Below are positions 2,720-40,000 of a stretch of DNA of 64,000 nucleotides, one piece after another (within the stretch, counting starts at the first letter, position 1; the number at the start of each line of letters is the position of its first letter). Origin of the DNA: Podarcis cretensis (Eukaryota); the NCBI GenBank assembly GCA_951804945.1, contig OX638161.1, positions 1,178,001-1,242,000 on the forward strand, written 5' to 3'. The translations under genes and the position numbers were made by a program. The notes under the pieces are model-generated. The model was given only the letters and a program-made list of their open reading frames with translations, was not told where the DNA came from and did not search any database.

Positions 2720-4328
2720 TCATATTTAGGTACAGCAAACTAAATATGACATAATAGTTATCACTGAAACCTGGTGGGATAAGTCCCACAACTGGAATGT
2801 AATAATGGAGGGATACAATCTATTTCAGAGAAACAGACCAGACAAGAAAGGAGGAGGAGTGGTGTTATATGTCAGGGATGTGTATACCTGTGAAGAGATC
2901 CAAGATTTAGAACCTCAAAGCCAAAGTGAGAGCATTTGGGTCAAAATTAAGGGAGAGAAGAATAATAGTGACCTCATTGTGGGAGTTTACTATAGATCCC
3001 CAAGCCAAACGGAGGACATAGATGATGCCTTCCTGGAACAGATGGCCAAGCATGCAAAAGGAAGGGAGATAGTAGTAATGGGGGACTTCAATTACCCGGA
3101 TATTTGCTGGATGTCAAACTCACCCCTCCCAGTTTGGTGTCATCTGCAAATTTGATCAGGATGCCCTTGAGTCCATCATCCAAGTCGTTGATAAAGATGT
3201 TGAATAAGACCGGGCCCAAGACAGAACCCTGTGGCACCCCACTAGTCACTCTTCTCCAGGATGAAGAGGAACCATTGATGAGCACCCTTTGGGTTCGGTC
3301 AGTCAGCCAGTTACAAATCCACTGAGTGGTAGCATAGTCAAGACCGCATTTTACCAGCTTCTTTACAAGAATATCATGGGGCACCTTGTCAAATGCCTTG
3401 CTGAAATCAAGGTAGGCTACATCCACTGCGTTCCCTTCATCTACCAGGCTTGTAATTCTGTCAAAAAACGAGATCAGGTTAGTCTGACATGACTTATTTT
3501 TCAGAAATCCATGCTGACTATTGGTGATCACAGCATTCCTTTCTAGGTGCTCACAGACTGTTTGCTTAATGATCTGCTCCAGAATCTTCCCTGGTATTGA
3601 TGTCAGACTGACTGGGCGGTAATTATTTGGGTCCTCTCTTTTCCCCTTTTTGAAAATAGGGACAACATTTGCCCTCCTCCAGTCTGCCGGGACTTCGCCT
3701 GTTCTCCAGGAATTCTCAAAGATGACTGCCAGTGGTTCTGAGATCACATTTGCCAGTTCTTTTAATACTCTTGGATGCAGTTCATCTGGCCCTGGATGCA
3801 GTTCATCTGGCTCTGGTCAGACCTCACCTGGAGTACTGTGTCCAGTTCTGGGCACCACAGTTCAAGAAGGACACTGACAAACTGGAACGTGTCCAGAGGA
3901 GGGCAACCAAAATGGTCAAAGGCCTGGAAACGATGCCTTATGAGGAACGGCTAAGGGAGCTGGGCATGTTTAGCCTGGAGAAGAGGAGGTTAAGGGGTGA
4001 TATAATAGCCATGTTCAAATATATAAAAGGATGTCACATAGAGGAGGGAGAAAAGTTGTTTTCTGCTGCTCCAGAGAAGCGGACACGGAGCAATGGTTCC
4101 AAACTACAAGAAAGAAGATTCCACCTAAACATTAGGAAGAACTTCCTGACAGTAAGAGCTGTTTGACAGTGGAATTTGCTGCCAAGGAGTGTGGTGGAGT
4201 CTCCTTCTTTGGAGGTCTTTAAGCAGAGGCTTGACAACCATATGTCAGGAGTGCTCTGATGGTGTTTCCTGCTTGGCAGGGGGTTGGACTCGATGGCCCT
4301 TGTGGTCTCTTCCAACTCTATGATTCTA
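2720..4328 (+). mobile_element. CR1 LINE, 5'-truncated, with internally inverted RT segment
   Basis: Endonuclease fragment (TETWW...[10 protein letters not shown]) on +; RT (NYRPVSLTS...[10 protein letters not shown]...FADDTKL) on - at about 3120-3790; C-terminus ([12 protein letters not shown]) and ATTCTATG-type tail on +. Confidence 0.92.
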
Positions 4329-5415: not shown

Positions 5416-5678
5416 TGTTATGTGCTGAAGTTCTCACCCTGGGCCAGCAGGGGAATACTGTAGATAGTTTTCACTCAGGTCCACATATGCAAATAAGGGA
5501 TTGAAAGTGACGTTCAGTGATTGGATAGTTACAGAAAGTGTTACAGTTGCATTCTAGTGGAGCTTTATATAAGCAGGATGGCTGAACCCTTCAGTTCAGT
5601 TCTGTTCTGGCCTGTGAATAAACAAGAGCTGTCTGAAGAATTGCTGTGTCGTCTGATATGTTCACCCACAACTTAACA
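5416..5678 (+). mobile_element. Solo LTR, 263 bp (Copia-like by size, termini and TSD)
   Basis: TGTTA...TAACA termini; 5-bp TSD AAAAT (5411-5415, 5679-5683); ATGCAAAT 5487, ATTGG 5520, TATATAA 5566, AATAAA 5617. Confidence 0.88.
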
Positions 5679-6295
5679 AAAATAGCTCATGTTTCAAGAG
5701 CCCCTCTGGCTCAGCCGCAGGACCTGGCAGCAGAGAGATAGATCAGCGAAGAGATTCCATTGGCTGCAATATAAAATACTGTAAGAGGTGGATCTTTCCT
5801 GGAGCAAAGGCCTGCTATGTGTTGTCGTGTCTCTTTTTAAGTGAAGGTCTTGGGGCAGCAGTTCTACAGTGTGGTGGATGCTGTTGTTGTCTGTGTTTGT
5901 GCATGAATCTGGCCCATATGGTCCTTGGAATTCCTCTTAACTTGATCATGGCGTCAGAGCTGAGGAAAGCTCTTTTTCAGTTTTGAGGGGCCCAGTATCA
6001 ATTTATTTGTGTGTTTATAATTCTGTGGTGAAAGCTTGCATTTCATAAAAGCTTGTGGGGGAGGCAGTTGATGCAGCAGCAGCAGAACAGATTTTTTTAA
6101 ATGCAAAATTATCCATTTTGCTGCTGGCTTTTCAATGCTGACGGGGGCTGTAGTTTGTCTGGAGAGCACCAGGTTGCCAAAGGTGACCTTAGGTTAACTT
6201 TCAGAACTCTGGAAGTGTGTGTTTGTGTGTGTGGTTTTTCCTACTACCACGCCTAAATATTCTTCTCTCTTTCCACCCCCATCCAGGATTTCTGA

Positions 6296-6945
6296 ATGGT
6301 CCTGCTAGCTTTTTTCTCTTTGCTGACTTTGGCCTGGTTAGTTTGGACCAAAATGGCAAACTACCCAAGGAAACTGGTCGTGGAAGGGCCTGCCCCAGAT
6401 CAGCCACTTCCTTCCGAAACTCTGGATCTTCCCACCAATGGATCCCCCCTCCAACTCTCCAAAGCTTGTGGGTCGCAGCCCCCGCTGATGGGGCCCAGCC
6501 AGGACTCCGAAGATGCCTCACAACAGTGCCCTCCTCTAAGCACGCAGGCCTCTGTGGGTGCCCCTAAGCAGCCAGAACACCCCTCCTGCCCCTGCAAGCC
6601 CCCAATTCCCCAGTCTGCCTCAGGTCATTTGGCCCAGGGCTCCCCAGCCACGGAGTCGGGGAGGCCTCTCAGCCGGGTCATCGTCCCTTCCTCAGGCCAG
6701 TCGCTGAGGCAAATGCGGTCCCTCTCAGGAGAGGAACCAGAGAGCAGCCAGGTCCAAGTGAGGCGCCAAGCAATGACCAAGTTTGTGCTGGGCTCTTTCG
6801 AAGACAACTCTTCTGATGACGAGCTTGTGGCTGGATCCTTCAAAATGGCGGGCAGGAGGAGGAGCAGCTTGGCCAGCGTCGGGTCCTCGTCCTCCGTGGA
6901 TTCCTCGCCGCTGATCTCCCTGTCGGAGACCAGTGGGATGATGAG
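6296..6945 (+). CDS. ACACB: ACACB coding exon 1 (mitochondrial-anchor N-terminal extension)
   Basis: [20 protein letters not shown]...[21 protein letters not shown]...GMMR; acceptor ccag at 6286, donor AG|gtaagc, phase 2. Confidence 0.95.
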
Positions 6946-8033
6946 GTAAGCATCATGGCAGCCAGAGAGCCTGCTGGCAGCTGGGCCAGGCAAAAGCTTG
7001 TTTGAGCATGGCATGTGAAACGGGCACAATATGAGATCCTGTGCTCTCTGTCTTTCCTAACTTATGCCAAAGCCCCCTCTCCTTCTGATTCACAGCAGTC
7101 TATCCCTCCTTTGCAGCTGAATGCCTATGACCTTAAGCAGCTTCCCCAACCCCATACCCTCAATAAGTTTTGGCTTACAGCTCATGTCCACCCAGCCAGC
7201 ACGGCCATGTTCCCCCCAAAGGATGCTTCGTCCTTCTGGGGCTGATAAGAGCTGGAGGGCACCAGGTTGGGGAAGGCTGAGCTTTAAAGGATGGGATGAG
7301 GAGCTTGTGGCCTCCGGATGTTGCTGGACTCCAACTCCCATGAGCTCCAGCTTATTTTTTGGCAGACTGATTTTTTATTTGCTATGCTCCTTGCTTGTTA
7401 CTCCAACTGTTGAAGTTGTGGCTTAAAAAAATGTCTTTCATTTTGAGATGCTGAGGTCTCTTTCATTGTATGTCAGTTTAGAAATGTTTGTTTTATGCTT
7501 GACTACTGCAATGCGCTCTATGTGGGGCTACCTTGGAAGGTGACCCGGAAACTACAACTAATCCAGAATGCGGCAGCTAGACTGGTGACTGGGAGCGGCC
7601 GCCGAGACCACATAACACCGGTCTTGAAAGACCTACATTGGTTCCCAGTATGTTTCTGAGCACAATTCAAAGTGTTGGTGCTGACCTTTAAAGCCCTAAA
7701 CGGCCTCGGTCCAGTATACCTGAAGGAGCGTCTCCACCCCCATTGTCCAGCCCAGACACTCAGGTCCAGCTCCAAGGGCCTTCTGGCGGTTCCCTCACTG
7801 CGAGAAGCAAAGCTACAGGGAACCAGGCAGAGGGCCTTCTCGGTAGTGGCCCCTGTCCTGTGGAACGCCCTCCCACCAGATGTCTAAGAGAACAACTACC
7901 TGACATTTAGAAGACATCTGAAGGCTGTTCAGGGAAGTTTTTAATGTGTGACATTTTAATGTATTTTTAATCTTTGTTGGAAGCTGCCCAGAGTGGCTGG
8001 GAAAACCCAGCCAGATGGGCGGGGTGCAAATAA

Positions 8034-8075
<42 letters not shown>

Positions 8076-11000
8076 GATTTAAAATTTAGACGTGGTTTCT
8101 GAAAGACGAAAATAGGTGATATGAAGAGGTAACAATATCCAGAGTAGCTCAGCTTCATGGTAGCTCAGCATCCAGCCAAAGCCAGAACTTTTCTGTTTAA
8201 GAAATCCAGCACTCCCATTAATGACCCCCTTCTTAGTTCAGCCGAGGTCTTGGCTTGCAGCCAGTGGTGGATTTAGGTAATTTTAGATTGTGGACTTAAG
8301 GTTCTTTGGGGTCCCTTCTTGGGCATTGATGATTCTAATGGGTGGCGGCTGGAGGGCGGCAGCACTCTCCAGATAATAATGTATGCCTCACTCACTACAA
8401 ATGGCCTTATGGGGTGGGGGCATTAAAAGGCCATGTGCATTGCTCACCAACCTGCATTGAGCATCCAGCATTTTTTGGCTCAAGGCTCCAAGGGCAGGGA
8501 GTCATCCACATTTCTGTTTGCCCCATGATTTCCATTCTCAGGTCCAAGAGGTTTTCGTTTTGTGCTGCCACTTTTCCTGGGAAAACCTGAATGTCAATCT
8601 GCAGAAAACCCAACTGGAATTTGTTCCAATTCAGCAGTAAGCAGTGGGTTTTTCAGGAAATGTGGCAGGACGAAAGATGAACCTCTCTGACCCTTGAATA
8701 GAAATCACAGGAGTAACAGAAATTTGGAGGAGCCCTTGCCTGTACCCTGTACCAGCTGCATAGCAGAAAAGGCAGGCACAGCTCTCTGCTTCATGTTAGT
8801 AAAAGTTAACTGTTAAAGCCCCCGACATTTCCTAACAGCAAGGAGTGGTGAGTGAAAAGAGAGAAGAGCAGCGAGTTCAGATCCTGAAGCTGATGGAACT
8901 GTGTAGATGATGTGTAGATGGGGCAGAGGGAATGACCTGTTTGTTTGTTTTTCAGATGAGAAATTATTGTTGCTTATTTATTGAATTTATATCCCTCACT
9001 TCCTCCCCAAAGAGCCCAGGGTGGCAAACAGATGGGCCATTTAAAACAAAAGCAAGGTAAACGTTTTAAAACGGGTTAAAACAGTCTAAAAAGAACTACA
9101 ATTGAAAACATCTAAAATCAGTTACAGTTAAGAACATTCCAAAAGCAGTTAACCAAAAAGATAAAAAACATTCTTCCACCCAGTGATCTTAGGGTTGCCT
9201 GGAACAGTGAGAGCCAGTGTGGTGCCACTGTTTGGAGTGTTGCTCCAGGAGCTGGAAGACCAGGGTTCGAATCCCCACTCAGCCATGAAGCTCCCTGGCT
9301 GCCCTTGGGCCTGTCACTCAGCCCACGCCACCCCACAGGGCTGTTGTGAGGGTGAAAGGGGGGAGGGGAGCATTATGTACACCACCTTGAGCTCCTTGCA
9401 GAGAAAAAAGGTGGAATATAAAGGGCATCAATTAATAATTGTAATTCTTTAGTCACCAAATGCCTGGCCAAGCAGGAAAGTTTAAAAATTGCTCCTGAAA
9501 ATAAATAATGATGGACGCAGACGCACCTGACTAGGGAGGGCATCACTGAAAAGGCTCCCTCACGGGCTGGTGAGAATCGGAGAGCCTCTGGTGGAGCCAC
9601 CACCAACCAGCTCAACCAATTGTAGGGTCCGAGATGGTTGGTAATGTATTCCAGATACCCATAGTCTATTTATTATCTGGTGTTTCAAAGATCTATATCC
9701 TGCTTCTAATTTTTTTTTTAAGAGAACCTCTTCTGAAGCAGTGTCACACAATAAGCCTTAATGTCCACAAGGACACATTTTATTTTTAAACACAGGCAAA
9801 CACATTAGCTACAAGTTGTTCCCAAAGCCTTCCAGGGTTGCTGATAAGCAGAGGACAAAAGGCCTGATTAGGACAAAGGACAGAGGACTGTTTCTTGGGG
9901 GGGGGCAGGCCCCTTGCCTCCCTCTTGCTGCTGCTCTCCTGTTGCAATGGGGGGACACGACTATGTAGTGACACGTAGAAATGGTGAAGGGGTTTTGCAG
10001 CCCTGGGGGTCTCTTGCGCAGGGGACTCTTGGCAACGAGGAAAGCGACAACTTGGATTTCAGTGAGAAGCAAACCCTGCATGCCTTCCGTGAGTCTGTCA
10101 AGCGAAAGGTTCCCATCTGTCAGGCGATGAGCTTTCTGGAGGTGCCTGGCTGGTCACTATCAGAGGCGGGACTTGGGCTGAGCCACCGGAGCAGGTTTGC
10201 CGCCTCAGTGTAAAGGGGGACGTGGTTTTCTCCCCCCCCCCAAATTTATTTGTTGTGTTTCTATCCCACGTTTTTCTCCCAGAAGCTCAAGGTGGCCCAC
10301 ATGGTTCCATCTCTCCTCACCACAGCCCTGCCAGGTAGGCTCGGCCGAGAGGCCCTGACCTGCCCAAGGGAGCTTCATGGCGGCGGCGGGGGGGGATTTG
10401 AACCCTGGGCTCTCCAGGTACTAATCCCACCCTAATCGGACTCTGCTGCCCACAAGACCTGGGTGTCCTTTGGCTTCGCCCCCCCCCCTTGAAAAAGCCC
10501 CTGCCTAGGAAAGGGTTGCTTGCGTGTCTTTGGGAGAGGAGACTCCGGCCCGCGGCTTCCTTCTCTGCGGCGTCTCGGGGCCCTTTTCCTCGGCTGAGCC
10601 TCTTGGTGCTGCTCGAGAGTTTGCTGGCGCTTTGCCCAGAGGGGAGCAACAGGCGGCAGCAATGGAGCAGCAGGAGGCGGCGGCGGCGGCGGCGGAGGAC
10701 GAGGCTGCCTCGGGGCCCCTCCCGGGCAGGATGGCAGAGGAAGGCGGAGCCGATCGGCGCTGCTCCGGGGGCCTTGGGAGGTCAGTCCGGGCGGGCGGGC
10801 GGGCAGGGGACTCGGTCCCCGGGAGAGGGCCGAGACTTGGCGGCTGAAGTCCCTTCTCCTCTTGGCTTCGGGCAGGCGGGGCTCTTGGACCCTCTTGGGC
10901 GTCCCCTTCCCCTTGTGCGTGGCCTCAGCCGCCGAGGGGGAGGCGGCAGCTGCCCTGCTCGGACGGGCAAGTCCTTTCCCCCCGCTTAAGAGGTTTTTTC

Positions 11001-14000
11001 AGGCACCTGCAGGTCAGAAGAGGGAGAGTGGCCTTCTGCAGTCGATATTTCCCGCGTGGGGTTTCCAGAAGTGCCAGAGGTCAGGTGGGGGCTTGCAGAA
11101 GCCCTTTCGTCTGCTTTATTGCACCCCTGGGTGTTTTGGAGCCTCCCGTGCATTGGGGGAGTGGATTCTCCAGATTCTTCCGCTTCTTCGTTTTGGTCAG
11201 CAAAGATTGTGCCTGTGTGTGTTTCGAAAACTGCTGTGGCCGGAAAAGCTCCTAGATGGAGTTTCCCATTTCCAAAACAAAATCCACGTTTCTTGTGTGA
11301 CATCACTGTGTTTCCCACCCTTGACCCTTGCTTGCCTCTTCCATTTTAAATCTTTCTTGCCCTCTTCCCTCCCTGCCCGCACTGCGTTTTTCTTTTAAAC
11401 ATCCAGTTTGGAAAGTGAGGGGGGACTAACTTCACAGCATCTTGTCAGGTTAGTTGATCTTCCTTTCCCCTTGCTTTCCCTGCCTGTCATCTAAAAATTG
11501 GGTTAAGTTTTTGCTAAAAGCAGAAATAAGCAAAATTGTGTGCACGCCTTGGGAGTACATGGGAGACACTGATTCCAGTATAATTTATCCCGATTTATTT
11601 TTATTTAATGAAGGTTTTGATTTACTTCAATAAACATATCAATATAGTAAAAATAACATAAGTGCATCAAAGCAGTATAGTATAGAATCCTAGAATTGTA
11701 GAGTTGGAAGGGATCCTGATGGTAATCTAGTCCAGCTCCCTGCCATGCGGGGATCATCTAGATCATGAATGACAGAGGGCCATCCAACCTCTGCTTAAAA
11801 ACCTCCAAGGCTGTTTTGGGGGAGACTTAATATTAGGTTGGTAAAGTACTTAAGACCATTATGAAAACCAAATTTCACATGGTGCTGTGGAGAGGGAGTC
11901 CTTTGTATCAGTATTTCTGCTATATATAAGGGAATTCAGGGTCCTCCTGAATTCTTTTGGCACCACACCATTTATGAGTCCCCCGCCCCAAATTTGCATA
12001 TTTTTATAGCAAAACAAAAATTGTAAATTCTGATTTATAAGGCTTTGAGTGTGAGTTGTTTAAATGTGTCATGCATTGCATATTGCGTGAAGCAGTTGGA
12101 AAGGTGGCTTTAAAATAAATTAATTCCCTAAATATATGTTATTAAGATTCTTTTCTCTTCCCTTTCCCCCTCCCCCACCCCACAAAATGCACCACTCAAA
12201 ATGTGGGTTTAGCTACTAGGGTCCCACAGCGCAGCCGTGTTTCCCCAGCCAGAGGGTGGCATGGCCGGACGTTTGCCCGGGCCCCTGTCTCCTGATGAGA
12301 AGACCCTCTGACCAAGCAGGGCTTCCATTTCCTCTTGCACAGATTATCTGAGAAGGTCAAGTGCAGTTGAAGAGAGCTCACACTTTGCATGTCCCAACTC
12401 TGGGGAGGAGCCTTTGAGGGAGGGGGCAAGCCCCAGGGCCCCAGGATCCTGCAGCCTGCAGTCTGCATTAGATAGGGACTAGACTGCCTGCCTCTGTGAC
12501 AAGAGATTTCAAAGGGTTTACCCTCTAGGAGTCCATGCATCCCAACAAAACTATGGCCTGACCGACTTGACTAAATGACTGAGTGGGGTGGAGATACATT
12601 TTTCATATTGCTTTGCGACTGCTTATACTTTCTTTTTGAAATGCCAATTAATCCAGGTTCAGATTTGTATATGAAAGGGCACATTACCCCTTCCCCCATC
12701 CCCCAAAGGCTGAGGTCACTGCAAGATGACCATCAAGAGAAATTTGCTAAAGTTACTGGAGATCTGTCTGTTTCTTGAAGACTGAAGAGTTCTGTGAGTG
12801 TGGGGTGTTTGTGTTTGGAAATATATACCCTAGTGGAGTGCTCATGTTCATGAGCCTGTCATTCTTTCCAAGAGGGGATTTCCACTCCTCCTTTTTCTCT
12901 CTCTTCCCCCTTCCATTTTTCATTCTTCTTTTCCAGCTGGCACTCAAATGTTCTGTGGCTTCTGGACTGCTCAGCATTCATGGGGGGAGCCAGCGGTGGG
13001 AGCAGTTTCCTCTTGTCTTAACTCACCACCTGTGTTTGCTATCGGAAGGAGTGGTTATTAATTTTTATTTTGATGATTAGGCTAAATTCCCAGTCAAAAC
13101 TGCCTCACTCACTTTTTGTCCTTTGCTCCGGAGGGTGTTTGTTGCCCCCCTCCCCGGCCTAATCTTGCCCGGCAGCTGCATTTCTGGGAGGACTGAGCCA
13201 GCCCTGCAAGCACTTGGCGAGAGAGCAAGGAGATAGCACAAGGAGCAGAAGCTGAGTGGCAAGCTGCCCTCCTTTGCCTCTCCTTAGTTAGGGGGGCATA
13301 CGGAAGGTGAGAATTTGGGGAAGGATTGCCTGGGTCAGGCCAAGTCTTGCTTAACCCAGCCTTCTGTTTCCAGCTCACCAGCAGCAGCCCTCCTCTCCTT
13401 GTGCCCAGCATTTGGCATTATTTGGTGGTATGATGTGCTTGCACATGGAGGCTCCCTCTAAGATCTCACTTCCCTTTGTCACCTTTTAAAGCCACCATGT
13501 AAGCTAGTCATCATCACTAGGGGGGTGAATTCTGCCACTAGGTTGCATGTTGTGTCCTGAATAGGCCACCAATTTGTTTCACTGTGGTGACATTTCATTC
13601 ACATAGAGACAGAGCGAAGGGAATCTTCCTGGTCTCAAACCAGCAGCCTTGAGGCTGGTGACTCTTTGCTCTTGGCACTGCATTGGGAGAAGACCTGCTG
13701 GGTGTCCTTGTGGTCAGACACAGACAATTTCTTCTGCAGCTTTCAAACAAGTTCTCCAAAGTTTATAGATCACAAACACATTTCTGAACCAGCCTACACT
13801 TGGTGAGTTATTTTGGTCTGAAAAGAGGAGAAAAACAACAACAAGAAATGTGGAATTATTCAGTACTTGTCACCTGGAGGGCATTTCTGGTTCGCCCTTG
13901 ATAACCAGAGGAGTGGTGGTTTGAAAGCTTGCTCCTCCTTGAGCTGCCCTTCTGGTTCCAAGGAGTTGCTGCCTGTGACTCCTGCTTCCTATCAGTCCTA

Positions 14001-17000
14001 CCAGGTCAGCCTCCACTCTTAATTTCCCTCCGTCTTCTCACCCCTTCCAGACCCAGCATGTCGGGGATGCACCTGACCAAGAAGGGGCGTGAGCAAAGGA
14101 AGCTAGACTTGCACAGGGACTTCACGGTGGCCTCGCCTGCGGAGTTTGTGACTCGTTTTGGAGGAAACCGTGTCATTGAAAAGGTAGCATCCCCAGAGAA
14201 GGGTAACAGATCAGGGGGTTTGCGACCATGGCTGGGTTTCTTGTGGGCTTCTAAAAGATATCTCCGGGAGGGTATGCATAGTCGCCCTCTTTTGGCATAA
14301 GGTGCAGAGCTCAAATGCAAATTTTTCATAGAATCACAGAGTTGCAGAATTGGAGGGGACGCCAAGGGTCATCTAGCCTAGCCCCCTGCAGTGCAGGAAT
14401 CACTGCTAAAGAATCCTTGACAGATGACCATCCAACCTTTGTTTAAAAACCTCCAAGGAAGGTTGGGTCCACCACCATATTTGTATCACTTTTCATTCAT
14501 TTTTCTTTCCATTTTTAAGAAGACCAAGACACTCTTTTGCACAGAGCTTTGTGTTTGGAGGATGAGTTTAGACTATCGCTCTCCCCCCCCCCCCCCCAAT
14601 TTAATATTCGTGCATTACATGGTTTCATTGTACTAAGCTTTATGGAACCCACCCTGGAACCCTATGGTGAAGGGTGGGCTTAATAAATACTTAAGGGTAT
14701 ATAGTAAGTAGGTCATCATCAGGGGCACCAACTCCTAGAGCAGGGGTCAGCAAACTTTTTTAGCCGTGGGCCAGTCCACCATCCCTCAGACCATGTGGGG
14801 GGTCCGACTATATTTTGGAAAAAAATTAAATGAACGAATTCCTATGCCCCACAAATAACCCAGATATGCATTTTAAATAAAAGCACACATTCTACTCATG
14901 TAAAAACACGCTGATTCCTGGACTGTCCGCAGACTGGATTTAGAAGGCGATTGGGCCGCATCTGGCCCACGGACCTTAGGTTGCCTACCCCTGTCCTAGA
15001 GGCTGAGCTCTTTTAGGCCCCTTCCAATTTTTTTTTTTTTGGGGGGCGGCCCTCCACCAATCTTCAGTGCAGCCCAAGGTTGAGAATGGCTGCTTTAAAG
15101 TGTAGGGTGTGAATGTGGCCCACACTTCTCTTGTAGTCTTTGGAGGAGGGATTGGGGTGCTCTCCATTCTCCAGCTGGAAATCTTTCCAGGATTAGCTGC
15201 TTAGATGCTTCAGTTGAGATTCTTGCATCGCAGGGGGTCCCTTACAACTCTGTGATTCCATGATTCTAACAACAATCAGTAACAAACATTACCTGTGTGT
15301 GGTTTCTTCCCAGGTCCTTATTGCCAACAATGGCATTGCGGCCGTGAAGTGCATGCGCTCTATCCGCCGCTGGGCCTATGAGATGTTCCGCAATGAACGG
15401 GCCATTAGATTCGTGGTCATGGTGACACCCGAAGACCTCAAAGCAAATGCAGGTAAGCAGCGAGAGTGTGGCCGCCCTGTCTCTGCATGCACATTCAGCA
15501 CTGCAAATAATTCTACCGTTACAATTTTTCAGAGTATATAAAAATGGCCGATCAGTATGTGCCAGTCCCCGGAGGAACGAATAATAACAATTATGCCAAC
15601 GTAGAATTAATTGTGGATATTTCAAAAAGGATTCCAGTGCAGGTAAGGTCTGAAATGCTCTATCTGCCTCTTTCCTGTTCCGGAGAACAAGACAACAGAA
15701 CAGTTTTGGTTTGGCGGCTTTGAGGATCAGTTGTTTACAACAGGTGTGTAGCTCTTGAGCTTGCTTCCTTGGAGTGCTTTCCGCAGCCTTTTGTGTTTGG
15801 ATCCTCCGTGTGTCTGCCATGAAACCTCCATGCAATGCAAAGGATTCCTGGGGACAGATAGAGAGACTCTGCTGGCTCAGGCAGCGGGTGCTCTGGGTGG
15901 GGAATGGCAATAAGGTGGCTCTGCGACCCTCTGCACTCTCAACCAGTTTCCCTCCTCGGAATTAAAGCCCTTGGAAAGCCCTTGGAAAGCAACTTAAGCA
16001 GTATTCTGGGAACTGTAGTTTGCTAAGGGTGCTGAGAGTTGTCAGGAGACCCCTGTTCTCCTTCCAGAGCTGCAGTTTCTAGAGTGGTTTAATAGTCAAT
16101 CCCTCTTCACAGAGAACTCGGGATTTGTAGCTCTGGGAGAGAATGCACCCATAACAAACTACATCTCCCAGACTTCTTTGGGGGAAGCCAGGACTGTTTC
16201 GAGTGGTATCCCGTTGCTTTAAATGCATGGTGTGAAGGTGGCCAAAGCTCCTCTACTCCCCTTGGGGAGTTCTCTGCAATACGCCTCTCTTGTAGTCTTT
16301 GGGCTCTGTAGGGCAGATCTTGAGTCCAAGCAGCTGTTTATGGATCTGAAGTCTGTTTCTTAAATGCTTTCATTGCAGGCTGTTTGGGCTGGTTGGGGAC
16401 ACGCATCGGAAAATCCAAAACTTCCAGAATTGCTTCACAAACACGGCATTGCTTTCCTAGGTAGGCATTCTTTCGTGCAGGGGTCCCTACTATTTTGACA
16501 GTGGGCACAACAGTGTCTCCTAAGATTCCTTTGGAGGAAAAATGGGGGGGGGGGCTTTTGAAGGTACAATCTTCTTTTTTGCCGGGTTTATTTGGGGACA
16601 GGGTAGGTGTTTTGCTTGTTTTATGAGATGTGTTTTTGCCAAATTCTCCTCCTGTGAATTGATATTTTGTGGTGTGCATGGCAGACTCTTAGATTTCCAA
16701 AAGACTGACATGGGGAGCTGGCTCAGTGTCTTTGAAATGCATGCTGCTGTGTACCTGTTAATATGGCTGATTTCAAGGTTGTTTATGCACTGAGAGATTG
16801 CTCTGTGTGTGTCCACATGGATACAAAAATAGACAATTGTCTGCTGTGGTAAATTGCAAAACTGGGGCCACAAGACGAGCACCAGCTCCTCCTGTGTTAT
16901 ATCCTGTATAGCACTACAGACTGTAAGCTGCCTGGGGCAGGGACCTGTCCTCTTGCATGTTGGTGGCACTGTTAAATGGGCAGATGCAGGATGAGTCGTG

Positions 17001-23700: not shown

Positions 23701-26700
23701 TGGAATACCTCTACAGTGAAGATGGCAGCTTCCACTTCCTGGAGCTGAATCCGCGCCTGCAGGTGGAACACCCTTGCACCGAGATGATTGCTGATGTTAA
23801 CTTACCTGCTGCCCAGCTTCAGGTAATTCAGATGCTACTAAATGGGGTTTTTGTCCCATGGCCCTCCCCAGCCAGCATGGCCAGTGGTCAGGAAAGATGC
23901 GTGTTGTAGTTCCAGCAACATCTGGAGGACCACAGGGGACCCATCCCTGTTCTCTAGGACTAGCGGGAAGCAGGATCTTTGCAGGGACCTAGAAATTTCT
24001 AAGCCTGGTGTTGTTCTCATACCACCAAAAGTCAGTCTCTTTAAGGTCTTTTTCATTGTAGTAATTTATTTATTGCATTTTTATCCCATCTTTTCCTCCA
24101 TGGTGCTCCAGGGTGCCATATGTTCTCCCTCTTCACGTTTATTCCCCCAACCCTCCTTTACCTACCCAGTGAAGTAGGTGAGGCAGAGAGGCAGTGATTC
24201 AGTGACTGGCACAAGGTCACACCCAGTGAGCCTCATGGGCAAGGAGGGATTTGAACCCTGATATCCCAGGTCCTCGTCCAGCACACCAGCCACACTGGCT
24301 CTCCAGTTGCAGTAAAGAATGTAGGAAGAGCCCTGCTGGATCCGGCCAAGCGCCCATCTAATCCAGCAACCTCCTTCCCACAGTGGCTGGCCAGGTGGGA
24401 ATGTAGCAGAGAAAATAACCGGAGACTGAAGTGAGCTTGCAGACCCTGGTTAAGAGGGGAACCTGATTAGTGCTAAACATGATTAAGACTTAGTGCACAT
24501 GTACTCTTCAACTGTGGATGAGTGTATGGGAGCCTGTAAGAGAGAGAAAAAAGGAGTATGGGATTTTTACACGCCGCTCCTAATCTCTTAGCTGCAGTTG
24601 AGACTATGGGTTCATCCACACTCCCACTTGCTTTCTGGAATCATAGAATCATAGAATCATAGAGTTGGAAGAGACCACAAGGGCCATCGAGTCCAACCCC
24701 CTGCCAAGCAGGAAACACCATCAGAGCACTCCTGACATATGCTTGTCAAGCCTCTGCTTAAAGACCTCCAAAGAAGGAGACTCCACCACACTCCTTGGCA
24801 GCAAATTCCACTGTTGAACAGCTCTTACTGTCAGGAAGTTCTTCCTAATGTTTAGGTGGAATCTTCTTTCTTGTAGTTTGGAGCCATTGCTCCGTGTCCG
24901 CTTCTCTGGAGCAGCAGAAAACAACCTTTCTCCCTCCTCTATGTGACATCCTTTTATATATTTGAACATGGCTATCATATCACCCCTTGACCTCCTCTTC
25001 TCCAGGCTAAACATGCCCAGCTCGCTTCTAGGCACAGGTCTGAGCAGTTACCCCCTTTCCCCACTCCTTTCCCATGGAAAATCCATTCTTTAGTACTAAA
25101 TTAGAGCAAACATCAATCTGGAGAAAACCCGAATTGCACTTTGCTCTGATTGAGCACCAAAAAGCAGTTTTCTCTTGGGGGAAGCAGAGGGAAAAGAGGA
25201 AATGTGAATAAGCCTTTAAGGGTTATCTGCATTCACTTGGCAGTTTATTTCATTTTCCTGTTGTTTCCCTAATTGTTAAGTTCTGGTTTATATTTGAGCT
25301 TTCACGTGATGTAAAAGACACTTCCTGAAATATAGTGGAATATAGCACAAGTTTAGCACTTGTTTCCATGTTATTTGCAAATAGATTTATTTTCTGGAAG
25401 CAAATATCATGGAAATGAGTGCTAAATGTACACCATATTACCAGAAGTAGTTTTTATGTTATCTGAAAACTCAAATAGAATGCAGAAATTAACAGTCAGG
25501 GAAATGTCAAGAAAACAGAATGAACTGCCATGGAATGCAGCCAATATCTTGCCATGTGTTCTGATGCAAAGAAGATAACTGCATCCCATGAAATAAAATG
25601 TTTGTAAAAGCATCTGGAAAGGACCCTGAAAGGTCCAAGGAATTCTGTTTCCTTTTGCCCCTTCTTTTCTCTTCCTCCTCTCAGATTGCCATGGGTGTGC
25701 CTTTGCACAGACTGAAGGACATCCGAGCCCTCTATGGAGAAGCCCCCTGGGGGGATTCTCCCATTGCCTTTGAGAGCCCCAGCAATGTGCCCGTCCCCAG
25801 GGGCCACGTGATTGCAGCACGGATAACCAGTGAAAATCCTGATGAGGTCAGTCATGGAGACTCAAACTGTCCTTACCTGCAAGGAGATGGAGAGGGGATG
25901 CTGAGAGAGCTTGGGTCCACATTGCAAGCATGTGGGATGTGAATCCTTTTATCAAGCAGTGTCAAACCTCTGTGCAACAGGAGGAGTTCGCAAATTGCCT
26001 ATTGTTTATTTATTTAATTTTTTGGGACCCCAGCTTTCCACCTAAGGTTCTGTTATGTTGCTTACAATCTAAAAATGAAATAAAAGCACAATCCAGCAAC
26101 CATTAAATATGAACATATAACAATGAAGTTTATTATTAAATATTATTATTCAAGATGAAGCAGCAAGGACTAGCAGACGCAGTAAAATACAATTAAGTCC
26201 AGGATTGCTTGGAGAAGATCTTGCAGGAACTCAGATGACCCTGCAAGATCTGCAAGAGCCCCCCCCCCCCTTAATGAGGGCACTGCCTGGGCCTTGCCCC
26301 TTCAAGCAAGATGGGGAGCATCAAAGTGGACACAAAAAGAGCTTTTAAGCTTTCCGCCTAGCTTGCATTTAACTTGTGGAATTTCAATCATGTTCTACCA
26401 CGTATGGTTGAAATAATTCAAGTTAAGAGTGAGTGCCTATGATACGATCACACTGTAGTAAAGACCTGGGGACATTAAAGCCCACATCCGGTTTTTCTTA
26501 GTACCGGTCAGGTAACAAGTCAGTGACTCTGCTGTCTCATGTTTACCATTTTTGTGGCAAGCTGCCTTTTGAGACCTCACTTAAAAGTTGGCAGGGAAAT
26601 AAGACAAAAGTGTAAACGCATGTTCTCCCCACTTTCCTGCTCCCCGTGTCTCTCTTTTGCACCTTGCAGGGCTTCAAGCCAAGCTCTGGCACCGTGCAGG

Positions 26701-29700: not shown

Positions 29701-32700
29701 GTAGGCCAGGGCTGTGCATTCACTTTGGCTGTCAGGTCCTGCATTCAATTCCCAGACCAGATAAGACAAATCTTTAGAAGAGGGAGGAAAGATTAGCATA
29801 AAAGCAATAACAGCTCACATAGAAAAAGGGGGGAACTCTAAAGAAAAGCAAAACAACTAGAGCTGCAGTGTTAAAGTTATAAGTAGCTAGATTAATCAAC
29901 TAAATGGTGCCTCAATTAATTGGGCCGCAGATTTTAATTTTTTTTACATGTGCAAATACTATTTTTAATACAACTATTTATTAAAACTGCTTATATGGTT
30001 GGCAGGTGGCAGTGATCTGTTTTAATCTGGTTTTTTGTTATAGCATAAATCTGAAGCAAAAAAAGCATGAGAGTTGGAAGGGACCCCCAGGGGTCATCTA
30101 GCCCAACCCCCGCAATGCAGGAATCACACCTGAAGAATCACCCACAGGTGGCCATCCAACCTCTGTTTCAAAACGTCCAAGGAAGGGAGAATCCTCCACC
30201 TACTGAGGTTGGGCGTTCCACATCCTGTGCTTGAGAACTATTCTGTACATTCATTGGCAAATTAATCACACACACCCCCCATTAAATTAGTTTAAATATT
30301 TAAAATTAATATCTAACTTAAGATTTCTTGGTCACAGCAACTGATGGAAAGATGCAACGGTAAAGGGACACCCTTCTCTCTGCAATGGGTAGCAGTTAAC
30401 ACCCTAAAAGCTAACCCCCCCCCCGTCTCTTTTCGACTCCAGATACCGCATCACCATTGGCAATAAAACCTGCGACTTTGAAAAGGAGAACGACCCAACC
30501 TTGCTCCGTTCTCCCTCTGCTGGGAAGCTCCTGCAGTACACGGTGGATGATGGGGGACACGTCTGTGTGGGCCACAGCTATGCGGAAATCGAGGTAGCTC
30601 TGGCATTTGGCCGGCTGGGAAGCATTTCTGAGGATGCTCTGGAGCTGCCTTCCCAGCCACCGCATGGCAGGGGCAAACGGGAGCGTATTGGGCGCAATGA
30701 ACTTTCAGCTGCAGAGTGTGTGGGGATGAGGGGATCATTTCTGGGGTGCCCCCTTTCCCTGGATGCCCCAAGCGCACACTTATTTTGCTGAAGGGCTAAT
30801 CCAGCCCTGCGTGAATCCAGCTTTCATCCGAGGCCTGTCAGCAAGGGTGAGGAAGCCTCCTGTCACTCTCCAAACAGGTGATGAAGATGGTGGTGACCTT
30901 GGCAGTGGAGGAATCGGGCCTCATCCATTACGTGAAGCGGCCAGGTACATTGCTGGAGACGGGCTGTGTTGTGGCGAGGCTTGAGCTGGACAACCCCACC
31001 AAAGTCCACCTGGTAAGTGAGCCGAGGCTGATTGGGAAAGGAAGGTGTGTCTGGCTGGGCTCTCTTCCGCCTCTGCTCCGCCCTTCCGGATTCTAAAAGG
31101 ATTTTCTCTGCTTTCTTCCTTCTTGTGCTGCCCTCCCCAATGTCTCCCCATCCCCACCTCCAGGCCCAGTTGTACACCGGTGGGCTGCCCACTCAACAGC
31201 CCCTGCCCATCCTCGGTGAGAAATTGCACCAGGTCTTCCACAACGTGCTGGAGAGCCTGATGAACATCATGAATGGATATTGTTTGCCAGAGCCGTATTT
31301 CAGCACCAAAGTAAGGGGGGGGTCTCCTTGTGTGCAAAGACCCTGGCTGGTTTTGCATGTGTGAGTTTTTGTAATATGATTTTTATTAAGATTAATCTAA
31401 AACAATACAAACAACAGATCTATCAGTCAAAGCCAAGTCCCACACCCTCTCATGCCAGATGCTTCACTTGTCCTGCACAGAAAGCCAGGAGGTTGTGGGT
31501 TGCCCTGGAGGCCAACAAAGTCCCACCGGGACAGGAAGCCTTCTTCTCATCTCCTTCCTGCTGGGGGGAGCGAGGGGGTGGCAGGGCCGAGCCACGTCAG
31601 AGGCTGTGCTGGTAATGCGGAATAGGGCTCAGCGGTTCCTGGCAGGAACAAGCCAGGGATCTTCCACGAGCAAAGCAAGGGGGGCCTCCTCCTTGTGCTT
31701 GGCAGGCTCCCAGGAAGTCCTGGCCAAAGCTGGCTTTCCTTGTGCAGAACTTCTCTTAATACAGTCATACCTCGGGATAAATACGCTTCAGGTTGAGTGC
31801 TTTCGGGTTGTGCTCCGTGGCGACCCGGAAGTAATGGAGTGCGTTACTTCCAGGTTTCACCACTCGTGCATGCACAGACGGTCAAAATGACGTCACTCGC
31901 AGGCGCGGAAGCGGCGAAACGCGACCCGTGCACGCGCAGACGCACTGTCGCGTCTTACGTTCTGTTCAGGATGCGAACGGGGCTCCGGAACGGATCCCGT
32001 TCGCATCCCGAGGTACCACTGTACTTCCCTTGGGTTGCTTGGCAGTCCCCATACCAATAGAGCCCCTCAGCACAAACTGCCGATGCCCCTGAACTTGCCT
32101 TTTCCCAAACTGAATCTGTGTCTTATTTGGGAGGTCCTTGTGTCCCTGATAATTTACTCCTTTTTGATGTTGTTTTTCAGCTCAAAGAATGGGTCTTCAA
32201 GCTGATGAAGACCCTCCGGGACCCCTCTCTTCCTCTCCTGGAGCTGCAGGAGATCATGACAAGCATTTCGGGCCGCATCCCGCCATCTGTGGAGAAGTCA
32301 ATCCGGAAAGTGATGGCCCAGTATGCCAGCAACATCACCTCAGTGCTGTGCCAGTTCCCCAGCCAGCAAGTGAGGGCTGCAGTGGGGAGGGGGAGGGCAG
32401 GTGATGCCAGGAGGACTGGGGGTGGGCTGCCTTCAAAGAAATGCTGGGGAGGCCCAGGGGGGATCCTGAGAGAACGGGGGGTGTTCTTGAGCTTTGTGCA
32501 GAGTTTCCCCTCCCCTCCCCCTCCCTAGGTCTGTGTAACTGAAGTTACTGCTCTTCTCCAGTTGGCATGCAGGGGTCCTCCAGATTGTGATGTGTTAATA
32601 TGCGACAGCAAAGGGGTCTAATGCAATCCTGGGCTGCATCCACAGAAGTCTAGTGTCCAGCTCAAGTCATTGTACAGCTCTATTCTGCCTTTGTCAGGCC

Positions 32701-37000: not shown

Positions 37001-40000
37001 GTTTTTATTCATTCCTTGTATGACTCTGTTCTTCCTTCTCCTTGTGAGTATTATGCCCTGTGGGCAGATCCATACTTTAGGGATGTAGATGGGTATAGAG
37101 AGAAGAACTCTAAGCAGCAGCGTCAAAATGCCACAAACCGGTAAGGATGCTGCCTCTTGATGCTTTTGTTGAAACCTCAGCTGTGTGCACGACACAAACA
37201 CAGTGATTGTCGGTGATAACTCCATCTTCTTAACTTTGCTACAGTAATATAAAGCTTGCAGTGGGGGAGAGGGCCTTGGTCTCATTTGAGGCCTGAGTGA
37301 TTCTAATCAAACTTTCTCATGAAAGCATGAGAGGTGGCGGACTCCCCTTCCTTGGCGGTTTTAAGAAGAGGTTGGATGGCCCCCTGTCATGGATTACCTA
37401 GCTGAAATCTTGCAGGGGGTTGGACTGGATACCCGTGGAATCCCTTCCAACCCTAAAATCCTATTATTCTAAATTTTAAACCAGCGTGATTCTAAAAATG
37501 TGTTGTGATCTCCAACGGCAGACCTGTTTGTTCATTCGCTGCTCCTCCCTTCCTTTCTAGAAACTGATCCTTTCTGAAACCACCATCTTTGATGTCCTGC
37601 CTACTTTCTTCTATCACTCCAACCAGGTGGTCCGCATGGCAGCCCTTGAGGTAAAAGGGAGGATGGCAAAGGCTAGAGTAGGGTAGTGCTTGAATGGAAC
37701 ACAGTGACATTTTTCCCCCTTTCAAAAAAGGGAGGGTGCTCTTGTAGCATTGATGGCAGCTGCATAGTTTGGGGCAACTGCTGGCAGCCTGGGGATGAAT
37801 GCATGCAGCATTCATGATCTGAAGGGTGGGTTCTCGTTCATAGAACAGTAGGGCTGGAAGAGAGGGACCCAAAGGGTCGCCTAGCCCAAACCCCTGCCAT
37901 TCACAGATGCGTTGCAGCACTCACACGACGTCATTGACATCCAGTTCCAACCTGCATTTCCCCACCCACTCCAGATGTGCCCTTTCTGGGGGAAATCCAA
38001 GAAGCAAAACCACCACCACCCCAACCTGTGGCCAGAACCCCCATTTGGGGAGCAGTATTCTGTTCTTCACCTGTCATTGGAATTCCCTTCTTTCCTCCCC
38101 AGGTGTACGTGAGGAGAGCCTACATCGCCTATGAGCTGAACAGCCTCCAGCATCGCCAGCTCACGGACGGCACCTGCGTGGTGGAATTCCAGTTCATGCT
38201 GCCATCGTCCCATCCAAACAGGTGGGCTTAGCCAAGAGCCAGAGACCGACCGTCTTGCACTGGCTCCCTGGGGCTTTGGGGGCTCTTTAACATGTGTGCA
38301 TGTGAGGACCTTTGGTGCAGAAGGAAACTGGACAAGGGCAGGCTGGAAAGGAGGTGTGGGCATGGGAGCAGAGCTACCGGAAGGTCCCAGGTTCAGTCCC
38401 TGGCCTCTCCACCTGAGACCTTGGATAGCCACTGCTGATTGGAGCAGGTGGCTCAGTGGCTGGGCATGAGGTATAAGGAAGCTTTGTGTGTCTTCTTTCA
38501 GAGGCAGCAGCCCCGCCCTGAGCAGGTAGAGTGTCTGGTTCTTTACACTGTGCAGCATGAGTGGCAATGTAAAAAGAATAACCGGCCTGCAAGTGCGTGT
38601 ACGACTCCTTGCCTACCTTTCCCTGGTTCTTTCATTCATTCTGGGCTTGCTAACTAATTTGCTTTTTGGTAAGCATGTGAAAGGGGTCTTTCTTCCGGGA
38701 TCATGGGATTATGATTATTTTTTTACGTCTTCTTGGTCCCTGCTATGAAGCTTAGAAGTGAGTATCAAAATCTCCAGGTGGAAATAAGAAGCCAGCATTT
38801 GTGGCCTCAGGGCCACACTGGGAGCAAGGACTTTCAAGGGCTGAGATGAGCTGTGCGCAGCCACCTGCTGTGACCTGTCCTGGGTCAGCCTTCTATCCAT
38901 GCTGGGAGTTGTGGGATCATCATCATGAGCTGTGAAATCTCCAAGGCGGCAGGAGGGAGGGCTGCCTGCCCTGGGGGATCTGTGGTGCTGCTGCAGCACT
39001 CCTGTTTCCTTTACGAGAATAGCCGTAACCCCCTGAGTCATCCAAGAGTCCTGTCTCCATGACTCTGGGGCTCTGCTGTGCCTGATTCTTCCCTTCCTTT
39101 GCGGGTAGGATGTCTGTGCCCATAAGCATCTCGAACCCCGACTTAGCCCGACACAGCACTGAACTCTTCATGGACAGCGGCTTTTCTCCTCTTTGCCAGC
39201 GGATGGGGGCCATGGTGGCTTTTGACAGATTTGGAGACTTCACCAGGTAGCTGAACAGCCATGTTTTGGGAGGAATGTGTTGTGACCCTTGCCTTCTGAA
39301 TGTCACCAAACAGCTAGACCACATTCACACCGTACCTATGACGTGCTTACGATACCACTTTAAATAGTTATGATGTCTCCCAAAGTATTCTGAGAGCTGC
39401 TGTTTGTTCAGGGTGCTGAGAGCTGTTGGGAGGCCCCTGATCCCTTCCCAGCTACAATTCCCAGAACTCCCTTTGAAGAAGGATTGATTGCTAAACCGCT
39501 CTGTGAATTGTAGCTCTCTTCCAAATTATCCTGTGTGTAGCATCCTGGGGGCAGCACAGAAGTCTTTATTAACCACCAGTCATTCCCAGGAAAGAATGTA
39601 GTTCTAGCCATTCTGTTTTGTTTTTTTTTATAATATTTTTTATTAATTTTCCAATTTTTAACAAAAAACAACAACAACAACACACAAACATCAACAAGTA
39701 CAAACACATACAAAGATATCATTTCTTAACCTCATTTTCATAAACCTCTTTTCTCGGACTTCCCCATACCTCACCCTTTTTGCATCCTTATTTTACAGTT
39801 TTTCAACAACTCTTTTTGCCAATTTAGTTTAAGCTCATTATCATTCTCAATTTTACCTTAGATCATCAAACAGTTTTAGCTGCAATTCTGCATCTCCCTT
39901 CCCCTTGACATTTTATCACTCCTCTATTTTACAACAGTTCTTAAGATATACTTTAAACTTCTTCCAATCTTCCTCCACTGTCTCTTTCTCTTGGTCGCGG

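Follow-up and report, generated by a model that had tools for sequence, protein, structure and literature searches.

A short alternative first coding exon of ACACB in the lizard Podarcis cretensis: a probable copy of an old vertebrate exon, predicted to remove the ACC2 leader and to alter AMPK recognition

The window, by which we mean the whole 64-kb stretch of Podarcis cretensis DNA analysed here, holds the entire coding region of ACACB, the gene of ACC2, on the plus strand from about 6.3 to 58.8 kb. In the textbook view, ACC1 is the cytosolic, lipogenic enzyme and ACC2 the mitochondrial one. The 5' part of the long form comprises:

6288..6945, plus strand: first coding exon of long-form ACACB, with the ATG at 6296 and a phase-2 donor at 6946
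6296..6352, plus strand: hydrophobic leader, residues 1-19, a proposed mitochondrial anchor (hydropathy 2.29 over 17 residues)
14051..14183, plus strand: common next exon, with an in-frame Met at 14058 and the AMPK-site serine codon at 14061-14063

The long exon ends in AG|gtaagc at 6945|6946, a donor edge at which RNA-type contigs also stop, and of its 216 residues 211 are identical in Podarcis muralis ACC2 X1, 209 in P. lilfordi, 208 in P. raffonei and 198 in Lacerta agilis. An acceptor (cag|G at 6287|6288) precedes the exon, and one RNA-type contig carries 95 extra letters upstream of it. Because it has an acceptor of its own, the long exon must be regarded as the first coding exon and not as exon 1. 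The role of the hydrophobic leader as a mitochondrial anchor is taken from earlier work on ACC2 (PMC2629817). The first ATG of the long exon, at 6296, has a T at -3, and a second in-frame ATG at 6353 (Met20), just past the leader, has an A at -3 and a G at +4; a Met is found at residues 16-32 in 99 of 106 leader-bearing ACC2 N-termini. Leaky scanning past 6296 could yield an anchor-less ACC2 from the long transcript as well.

The intron between 6945 and 14051 contains a second and much shorter candidate for a first coding exon, lying in the strongest CpG island of the window:

10510..11009, plus strand: core of the CpG island, a candidate TATA-less internal promoter; the wider island extends over 10301-11250
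10662..10780, plus strand: alternative first exon, coding part from the upstream ATG, 39 codons and 2 nt
10677..10694, plus strand: (GCG)6 triplet repeat encoding a poly-Ala run
10731..10780, plus strand: conserved 17-codon core from the second ATG, equal in length to its counterparts in Lacerta, Elgaria, gar, conger and rays
10781..10786, plus strand: splice donor gtcagt, phase 2

The original prediction described a strong-context ATG followed by a 119-nt frame, and both are present: the ATG at 10662 reads gca ATG g, with a purine at -3 and a G at +4, and the frame is open to AG|gtcagt at 10780|10781. The likeness to a canonical exon 1 that had been drawn from this holds for the phase, which is 2, but not for the label, as the long exon is the first coding exon only. 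The 39-residue peptide is indeed acidic (8 acidic and 3 basic residues) with a poly-Ala run of six, and the short N-terminus has no hydrophobic helix, its highest 19-residue hydropathy being 0.02 against 1.81 for the long N-terminus. The earlier reading overlooked another in-frame ATG, which stands at 10731 with an A at -3 and a G at +4 and opens the 17-codon form. The proposed CpG island is borne out by 61 CpG in 10001-11000, against 1055 across the 64 kb (a mean of about 16 per kb), with a GC content of 0.70 and an observed/expected ratio of 0.72 in its best 500 bp (10510-11009). GC boxes lie at 10165, 10789 and 10797, and a scan of 9901-11300 with SRE, TATA and ChoRE-like patterns gave no match. 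Judged by its composition, the island may well act as a promoter.

A chance combination of ATG and donor in a GC-rich patch has to be considered, as the intron offers 97 pairs of an ATG with a phase-2 GT on 68 donors. A donor consensus of at least 7 of 9 positions is reached by nine of these pairs on four donors, and among the nine only the two pairs at donor 10781 combine a purine at -3 with a G at +4. The 9-mer of this donor recurs at 25847, where ACACB uses it, and scores higher than 24 of the 42 mapped ACACB donors. It ranks 8th among the 357 GTs of the intron and 4th among the 41 of the island, and with 8 of 357 donor strength alone does not single out the short exon. What singles it out is the match to Lacerta agilis ACC2 isoform X4 (XP_033026266.1), which ends exactly at donor 10781. 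The 17-residue start of this isoform is identical to Podarcis from 10731 at 12 of 16 residues, and when its N-terminus is slid over all six frames, 10731 ranks first among 127,906 positions with a score of 58, the next being 29. This rank-1 match refutes the chance explanation, to which we attach practically no probability.

Homologues were collected from searches with the next exon (the best 120 of 138 and the best 120 of 784 matches) and from the member lists of 29 clusters, with the N-termini read by script. The X-isoforms of RefSeq are usually built on RNA-seq and are predictions, not experiments. Short N-termini on the same next exon were found in at least nine lizards, namely Lacerta, Elgaria (17 aa), Hemicordylus (20 aa), Eublepharis (39 aa), Paroedura (40 aa), Pogona (43 aa), Tiliqua (45 aa), Rhineura (46 aa) and Gekko kuhli, the last as a gene model. 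In the forms of 39-46 aa (Rhineura, Tiliqua, Pogona, Eublepharis and Paroedura) the start is MEE or MEA, like that at the 10662 ATG of Podarcis. Related short N-termini exist beyond lizards in frogs (15 aa), gar and conger (17 aa), killifish (12 aa) and sawfish and skates (17 aa); in the rays listed the short form makes up isoforms X1 and X2, and no long form is among their members (seven of seven listed). Eublepharis XP_054852819.1, Ascaphus XP_075424899.1, gar XP_015221749.2 and Pristis XP_051888522.1 share with Podarcis the junction, the acidic start and a core of 15-17 aa. Aligned as profiles, the lizard peptides match those of frogs, fish and rays with a hhalign probability of 96.5% (E 9e-10).

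The Podarcis core scores against seven non-lacertid lizards with a p of 0.006 among the 541 donor-ending peptides of the window, a score reached by one of 500 shuffles. Compared with single lizard peptides the match is modest, with ranks of 143-25,548 for seven of nine; for the Rhineura N-terminus the six-frame slide placed 10731 first, in a tie. The initial proposal of an alternative first coding exon, through which ACC2 would lose its hydrophobic leader, is supported by an orthologous RefSeq isoform in Lacerta agilis. The additional idea of a promoter that is this lizard's own falls, since the exon is common to other lizards, frogs, bony fish and rays; it is not an invention of Podarcis, and orthologous models are already in RefSeq.

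For the counts given below, 31 short forms were chosen by eye. Near-duplicates and Logan or Ensembl peptides resembling intron read-through were dropped, as were short N-termini unlike the family (Pogona X5, conger X7, Dromiciops X4, Alligator X4, Malaclemys X3, Pseudophryne X5, X7 and X8, a Xenopus model and Geotrypetes X3). The presence of such unrelated N-termini in the same lists means that annotation yields other short starts too. The caecilian short N-termini showed no link to the family in similarity tests. A 61-aa read-through frame found no match as a query in a search covering proteins of 108-2000 aa, and a search of representatives with the long exon returned 16 fragments and no full-length isoforms.

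The short exon ends inside a kinase site, a point that the original prediction did not raise. The AMPK motif has a basic residue at P-6, a bulky hydrophobic residue (M, L, I, F or V) at P-5, a basic residue at P-4 or P-3 and a hydrophobic residue at P+4; the groove of the kinase is bound by a helix spanning P-16 to P-5 (PMC5805978). From the pattern of Met at P-5, Arg at P-4, His at P+3 and Leu at P+4 (PMC5805978), the AMPK serine of Podarcis was assigned to 14061-14063, with His at P+3, Leu at P+4 and the split Arg at P-4. The exon junction therefore lies four residues before the serine, within the motif, and the residues before P-4 are all encoded by the first exon. As the junction falls at P-4, it is the short exon that supplies the docking segment in the short form, where P-5 is Gly instead of the Met of the long form. 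The wider comparison counts related sequences and not independent events. Of 109 distinct N-terminal ends of long forms, taken from ACC1 and ACC2 proteins above 2200 aa, 105 have M, L, I, F or V at P-5, and of the four that do not, at least three appear to be mis-modelled. Among the 31 short forms, such a residue occurs in 6, of which five are from mammals and one is from a caecilian; the others carry W, R, K, Q, G, S or E. R or K occupies both P-5 and P-4 in 10 of 28 short ACC2 forms and in none of the 109 long forms. The resulting dibasic R/K-R-x-S, with its serine at P-2, is presumably, by its consensus, a PKA-type site. An exon boundary running through the AMPK recognition motif predicts isoform-specific kinase control, and from these residues the short lizard ACC2 is predicted to be a poorer AMPK substrate than the long form. 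With the AMPK docking site rewritten, the short N-terminus may alter how the enzyme is switched off.

A Cys is found within the last 17 residues of 17 of the 31 short forms, and in the Podarcis exon as well. As a speculation, S-acylation of this residue could give weak membrane binding despite the absent leader.

We consider it probable that the short exon represents, in Podarcis, an alternative first exon that ACACB has had since early in its history, and that it is driven by the island promoter, is spliced to 14051 and gives a leaderless product with a swapped AMPK docking segment. Transcripts would arise from the CpG-island promoter within the intron that follows the long coding exon, and their short first exon would join the 14051 exon in phase 2. 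The start of translation could be 10662, giving a 40-residue N-terminus, or at 10731, giving 17 residues, through leaky scanning or a later transcription start site. The product would keep every catalytic domain, lose the 19-residue leader and have the Met at P-5 of the docking segment replaced by Gly. As the leader is absent, the short ACC2 would most likely not be inserted in the mitochondrial outer membrane. From the sequence we infer that the exon would be transcribed and spliced in Podarcis with one or the other start, and that the enzyme would be cytosolic, available for lipogenesis and under weaker AMPK control.

The commonest, though not universal, end of the non-mammalian short exons is W-F-x-x-L-[RKW]-R, and this motif is eroded in lacertids and more so in Podarcis. 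The W-F columns read C-S in both Podarcis and Lacerta (C-S-G-G-L, continuing as C-S-G-G-L-G in Podarcis), with a Gly in the Podarcis exon where Lacerta has a Trp. The short core differs between the two species at 4 of 16 residues and the long exon at 18 of 216 (Fisher p 0.05), an excess that hints at relaxed constraint. Together with the eroded motif, the core differences speak for a decaying exon, in which the island promoter would fire and the skipping of the long exon would be what matters, with the peptide little selected and translation starting at either ATG or at Met 14058. Further in its favour, 27 full-length ACC proteins of the set (P. raffonei X5 and 26 others) have the next exon's Met as their first residue, and no short-exon RefSeq form occurs among the snake members listed (15 of 21 and 15 of 19). 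We nevertheless judge decay to be unlikely, as both ATGs stand in strong context, frame and donor are intact, the repeat is a triplet and the upstream MEE/MEA start is retained in five other lizards. The 27 proteins also mean that an anchor-less enzyme is possible without the 10662 ATG; as such next-exon starts exist, the loss of ATG or frame in relatives would be too strict a ground for rejecting an anchor-less ACC2. An ACC2 started at Met 14058 would have neither P-5 nor P-4 of the AMPK motif.

As in the snakes, no family-type short form appeared among the members listed for crocodilians (15 of 36), turtles (15 of 139), birds (7 of 7) and lampreys (15 of 27). The Laticauda Ensembl model P0526 begins with an MEE stretch that resembles the 5' portion of the short exon of lizards but lacks the 3' motif, and snakes may perhaps retain the exon with a broken frame.

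Among the lacertid members listed (11 of 11, 3 of 3 and 15 of 42), no Podarcis protein carries the short-exon N-terminus. This could mean that the exon is a homologous remnant which is not spliced in Podarcis, within an island that is silent or serves as an enhancer. The retention of a CpG island usually requires germ-line hypomethylation, and with the island kept, donor and ATGs intact and a Lacerta model in existence, we find such a remnant very improbable. In RNA-type contigs from four runs over 5600-16500, which cannot reveal transcript starts or levels, neither 6945-14051 nor 10780-14051 was among the 15 of 162 joints listed in tables crowded by repeats; runs X4 and X13 gave no cover at 10696-11059 and run X1 low cover over the whole intron. 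The joints 14181-15312 and 15449-15530 were each present in three of the four runs. A search of sequencing runs with 10480-10800 listed no RNA run carrying this stretch, which speaks neither for nor against its transcription.

The preferred reading, that of an old exon in use, has a parallel in mammals. The human ACC2.v2 exon is located at a CpG island between RefSeq exons 1 and 2 and encodes a 16-residue N-terminus; it is supported by RT-PCR and protein evidence, accounts for over 20% of ACC2 mRNA in adipose and for most of it in testis, and its overexpressed product had enzyme activity and increased lipogenesis about two-fold, like the long form (PMC2629817). The results section of that paper contains no localisation experiment, and its conservation figure S2 may bear on conservation in chicken (PMC2629817). 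The Podarcis exon shares with ACC2.v2 of human and rodents (Castle et al. 2009, PMC2629817) the same intron, here between the first coding exon of ACACB and the next, as well as the CpG island, an ATG of its own, the in-frame donor into the same next exon and a short N-terminus without the leader, of 17 aa from the second ATG compared with 16 aa. It differs in the extra upstream ATG of the 40-aa form and in the residue at P-5, which is Val in eutherian and platypus short forms and Gly in Podarcis.

The question of their homology, raised with the original prediction, is answered in part. Intron, CpG island and length agree, but the peptides show no significant similarity: the human 16-mer ranks 95,944th at the 10731 site, the test against the mammalian v2 peptides gives a p of 0.38, and the mammalian short peptides as a group reach no significant score against the non-mammalian ones. 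The sole bridge is a C-F-P in frogs and in platypus and opossum (p 0.002-0.017, uncorrected among about 800 pairs). Orthology of the Podarcis exon and ACC2.v2 is therefore likely by position and unproven by sequence, and the two can be called positional counterparts.

ACC2.v2, known until now from human and rodents, blurs the split between ACC1 and ACC2. As the short start is kept from rays to lizards, it is to be seen as an old part of vertebrate lipid control; taken alone the lizard case is ordinary, since the sister genus Lacerta already has a RefSeq isoform. The interest of the finding lies mostly in how deeply the exon is conserved and in the predicted effect on AMPK. In the freely readable literature searched, the name ACC2.v2 occurs in one paper, and none of the titles and abstracts listed deals with a reptile ACC2 isoform, with conservation of the exon across vertebrates or with an effect on the AMPK motif.

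A similar arrangement is found in the paralogue. In ACACA, promoter III lies in intron 5 and exon 5A replaces exon 5, an arrangement described as ruminant-only (PMC2878982). Exon 5A and the Podarcis exon occupy the same intron position; exon 5A follows an internal promoter after the first coding exon and replaces that exon, as is proposed for the Podarcis exon; unlike ACC2, the exon 5 form of ACC1 has no hydrophobic leader to lose. Cariama, Lerista and Naja have acidic ACC1 starts of 18-20 aa at the paralogous junction, and the pigeon ACC1 model P0113 has the order long exon, short exon, next exon. By their position these bird and reptile ACC1 peptides would correspond to exon 5A. Birds, a skink and a cobra have exon-5A-like starts (P0544, P0118, P0078 and P0113), in contrast to the ruminant-only statement of PMC2878982.

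When anchored at the junction, three related ACC1 peptides compared with 15 non-mammalian ACC2 peptides gave a p of 0.004-0.007 (0 of 500 shuffles), hhalign found no match between the ACC1 and ACC2 short exons (below 4%), and for the Podarcis exon itself the p was 0.12. The ACC1 short exon thus weakly resembles the ACC2 family, and a common origin before the duplication is possible. A broader scenario, which we find doubtful though worth stating, is that the short exon predates the ACACA/ACACB duplication and, beyond deleting the anchor, swaps the AMPK-docking helix in both paralogues, resulting in an AMPK-resistant ACC; with the dibasic forms, those of rays, gar, eel, frogs and one gecko, it would instead create a PKA-type site at the P-2 serine, an AMPK-type P-5 would have been regained in placentals and platypus, and the motif would be eroding in lacertids. 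Barber and Travers (1998) are said to have discussed the altered ACC1 N-terminus near Ser79, and the docking idea may already be in print for ACC1.

The lamprey ACC models P0176, P0401 and P0405 occur with and without a hydrophobic N-terminal leader, and the choice of anchor via alternative 5' ends may predate the separation of ACC1 and ACC2. The stork and cormorant ACC2 models P0253, P0374, P0375 and P0377 begin without the leader; either the anchor was lost in birds or the models were begun at the second Met.

Elsewhere in the window, a 24-nt in-frame microexon (8 aa) was mapped at 38502-38525 between the introns at 38222 and 38526, and probably accounts for the 8-residue gap between lacertid isoforms of 2466 and 2458 aa. 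A second CpG-rich patch lies inside ACACB at 31451-32400, with 44 CpG and an observed/expected ratio of 1.14 over 31751-32100. LINE fragments resembling reverse transcriptase and endonuclease, which we take to be of CR1/L2 type, are found at 1527-1871, 2730-4166, 7420-8147 and 14700-15063, together with very high-copy repeats.
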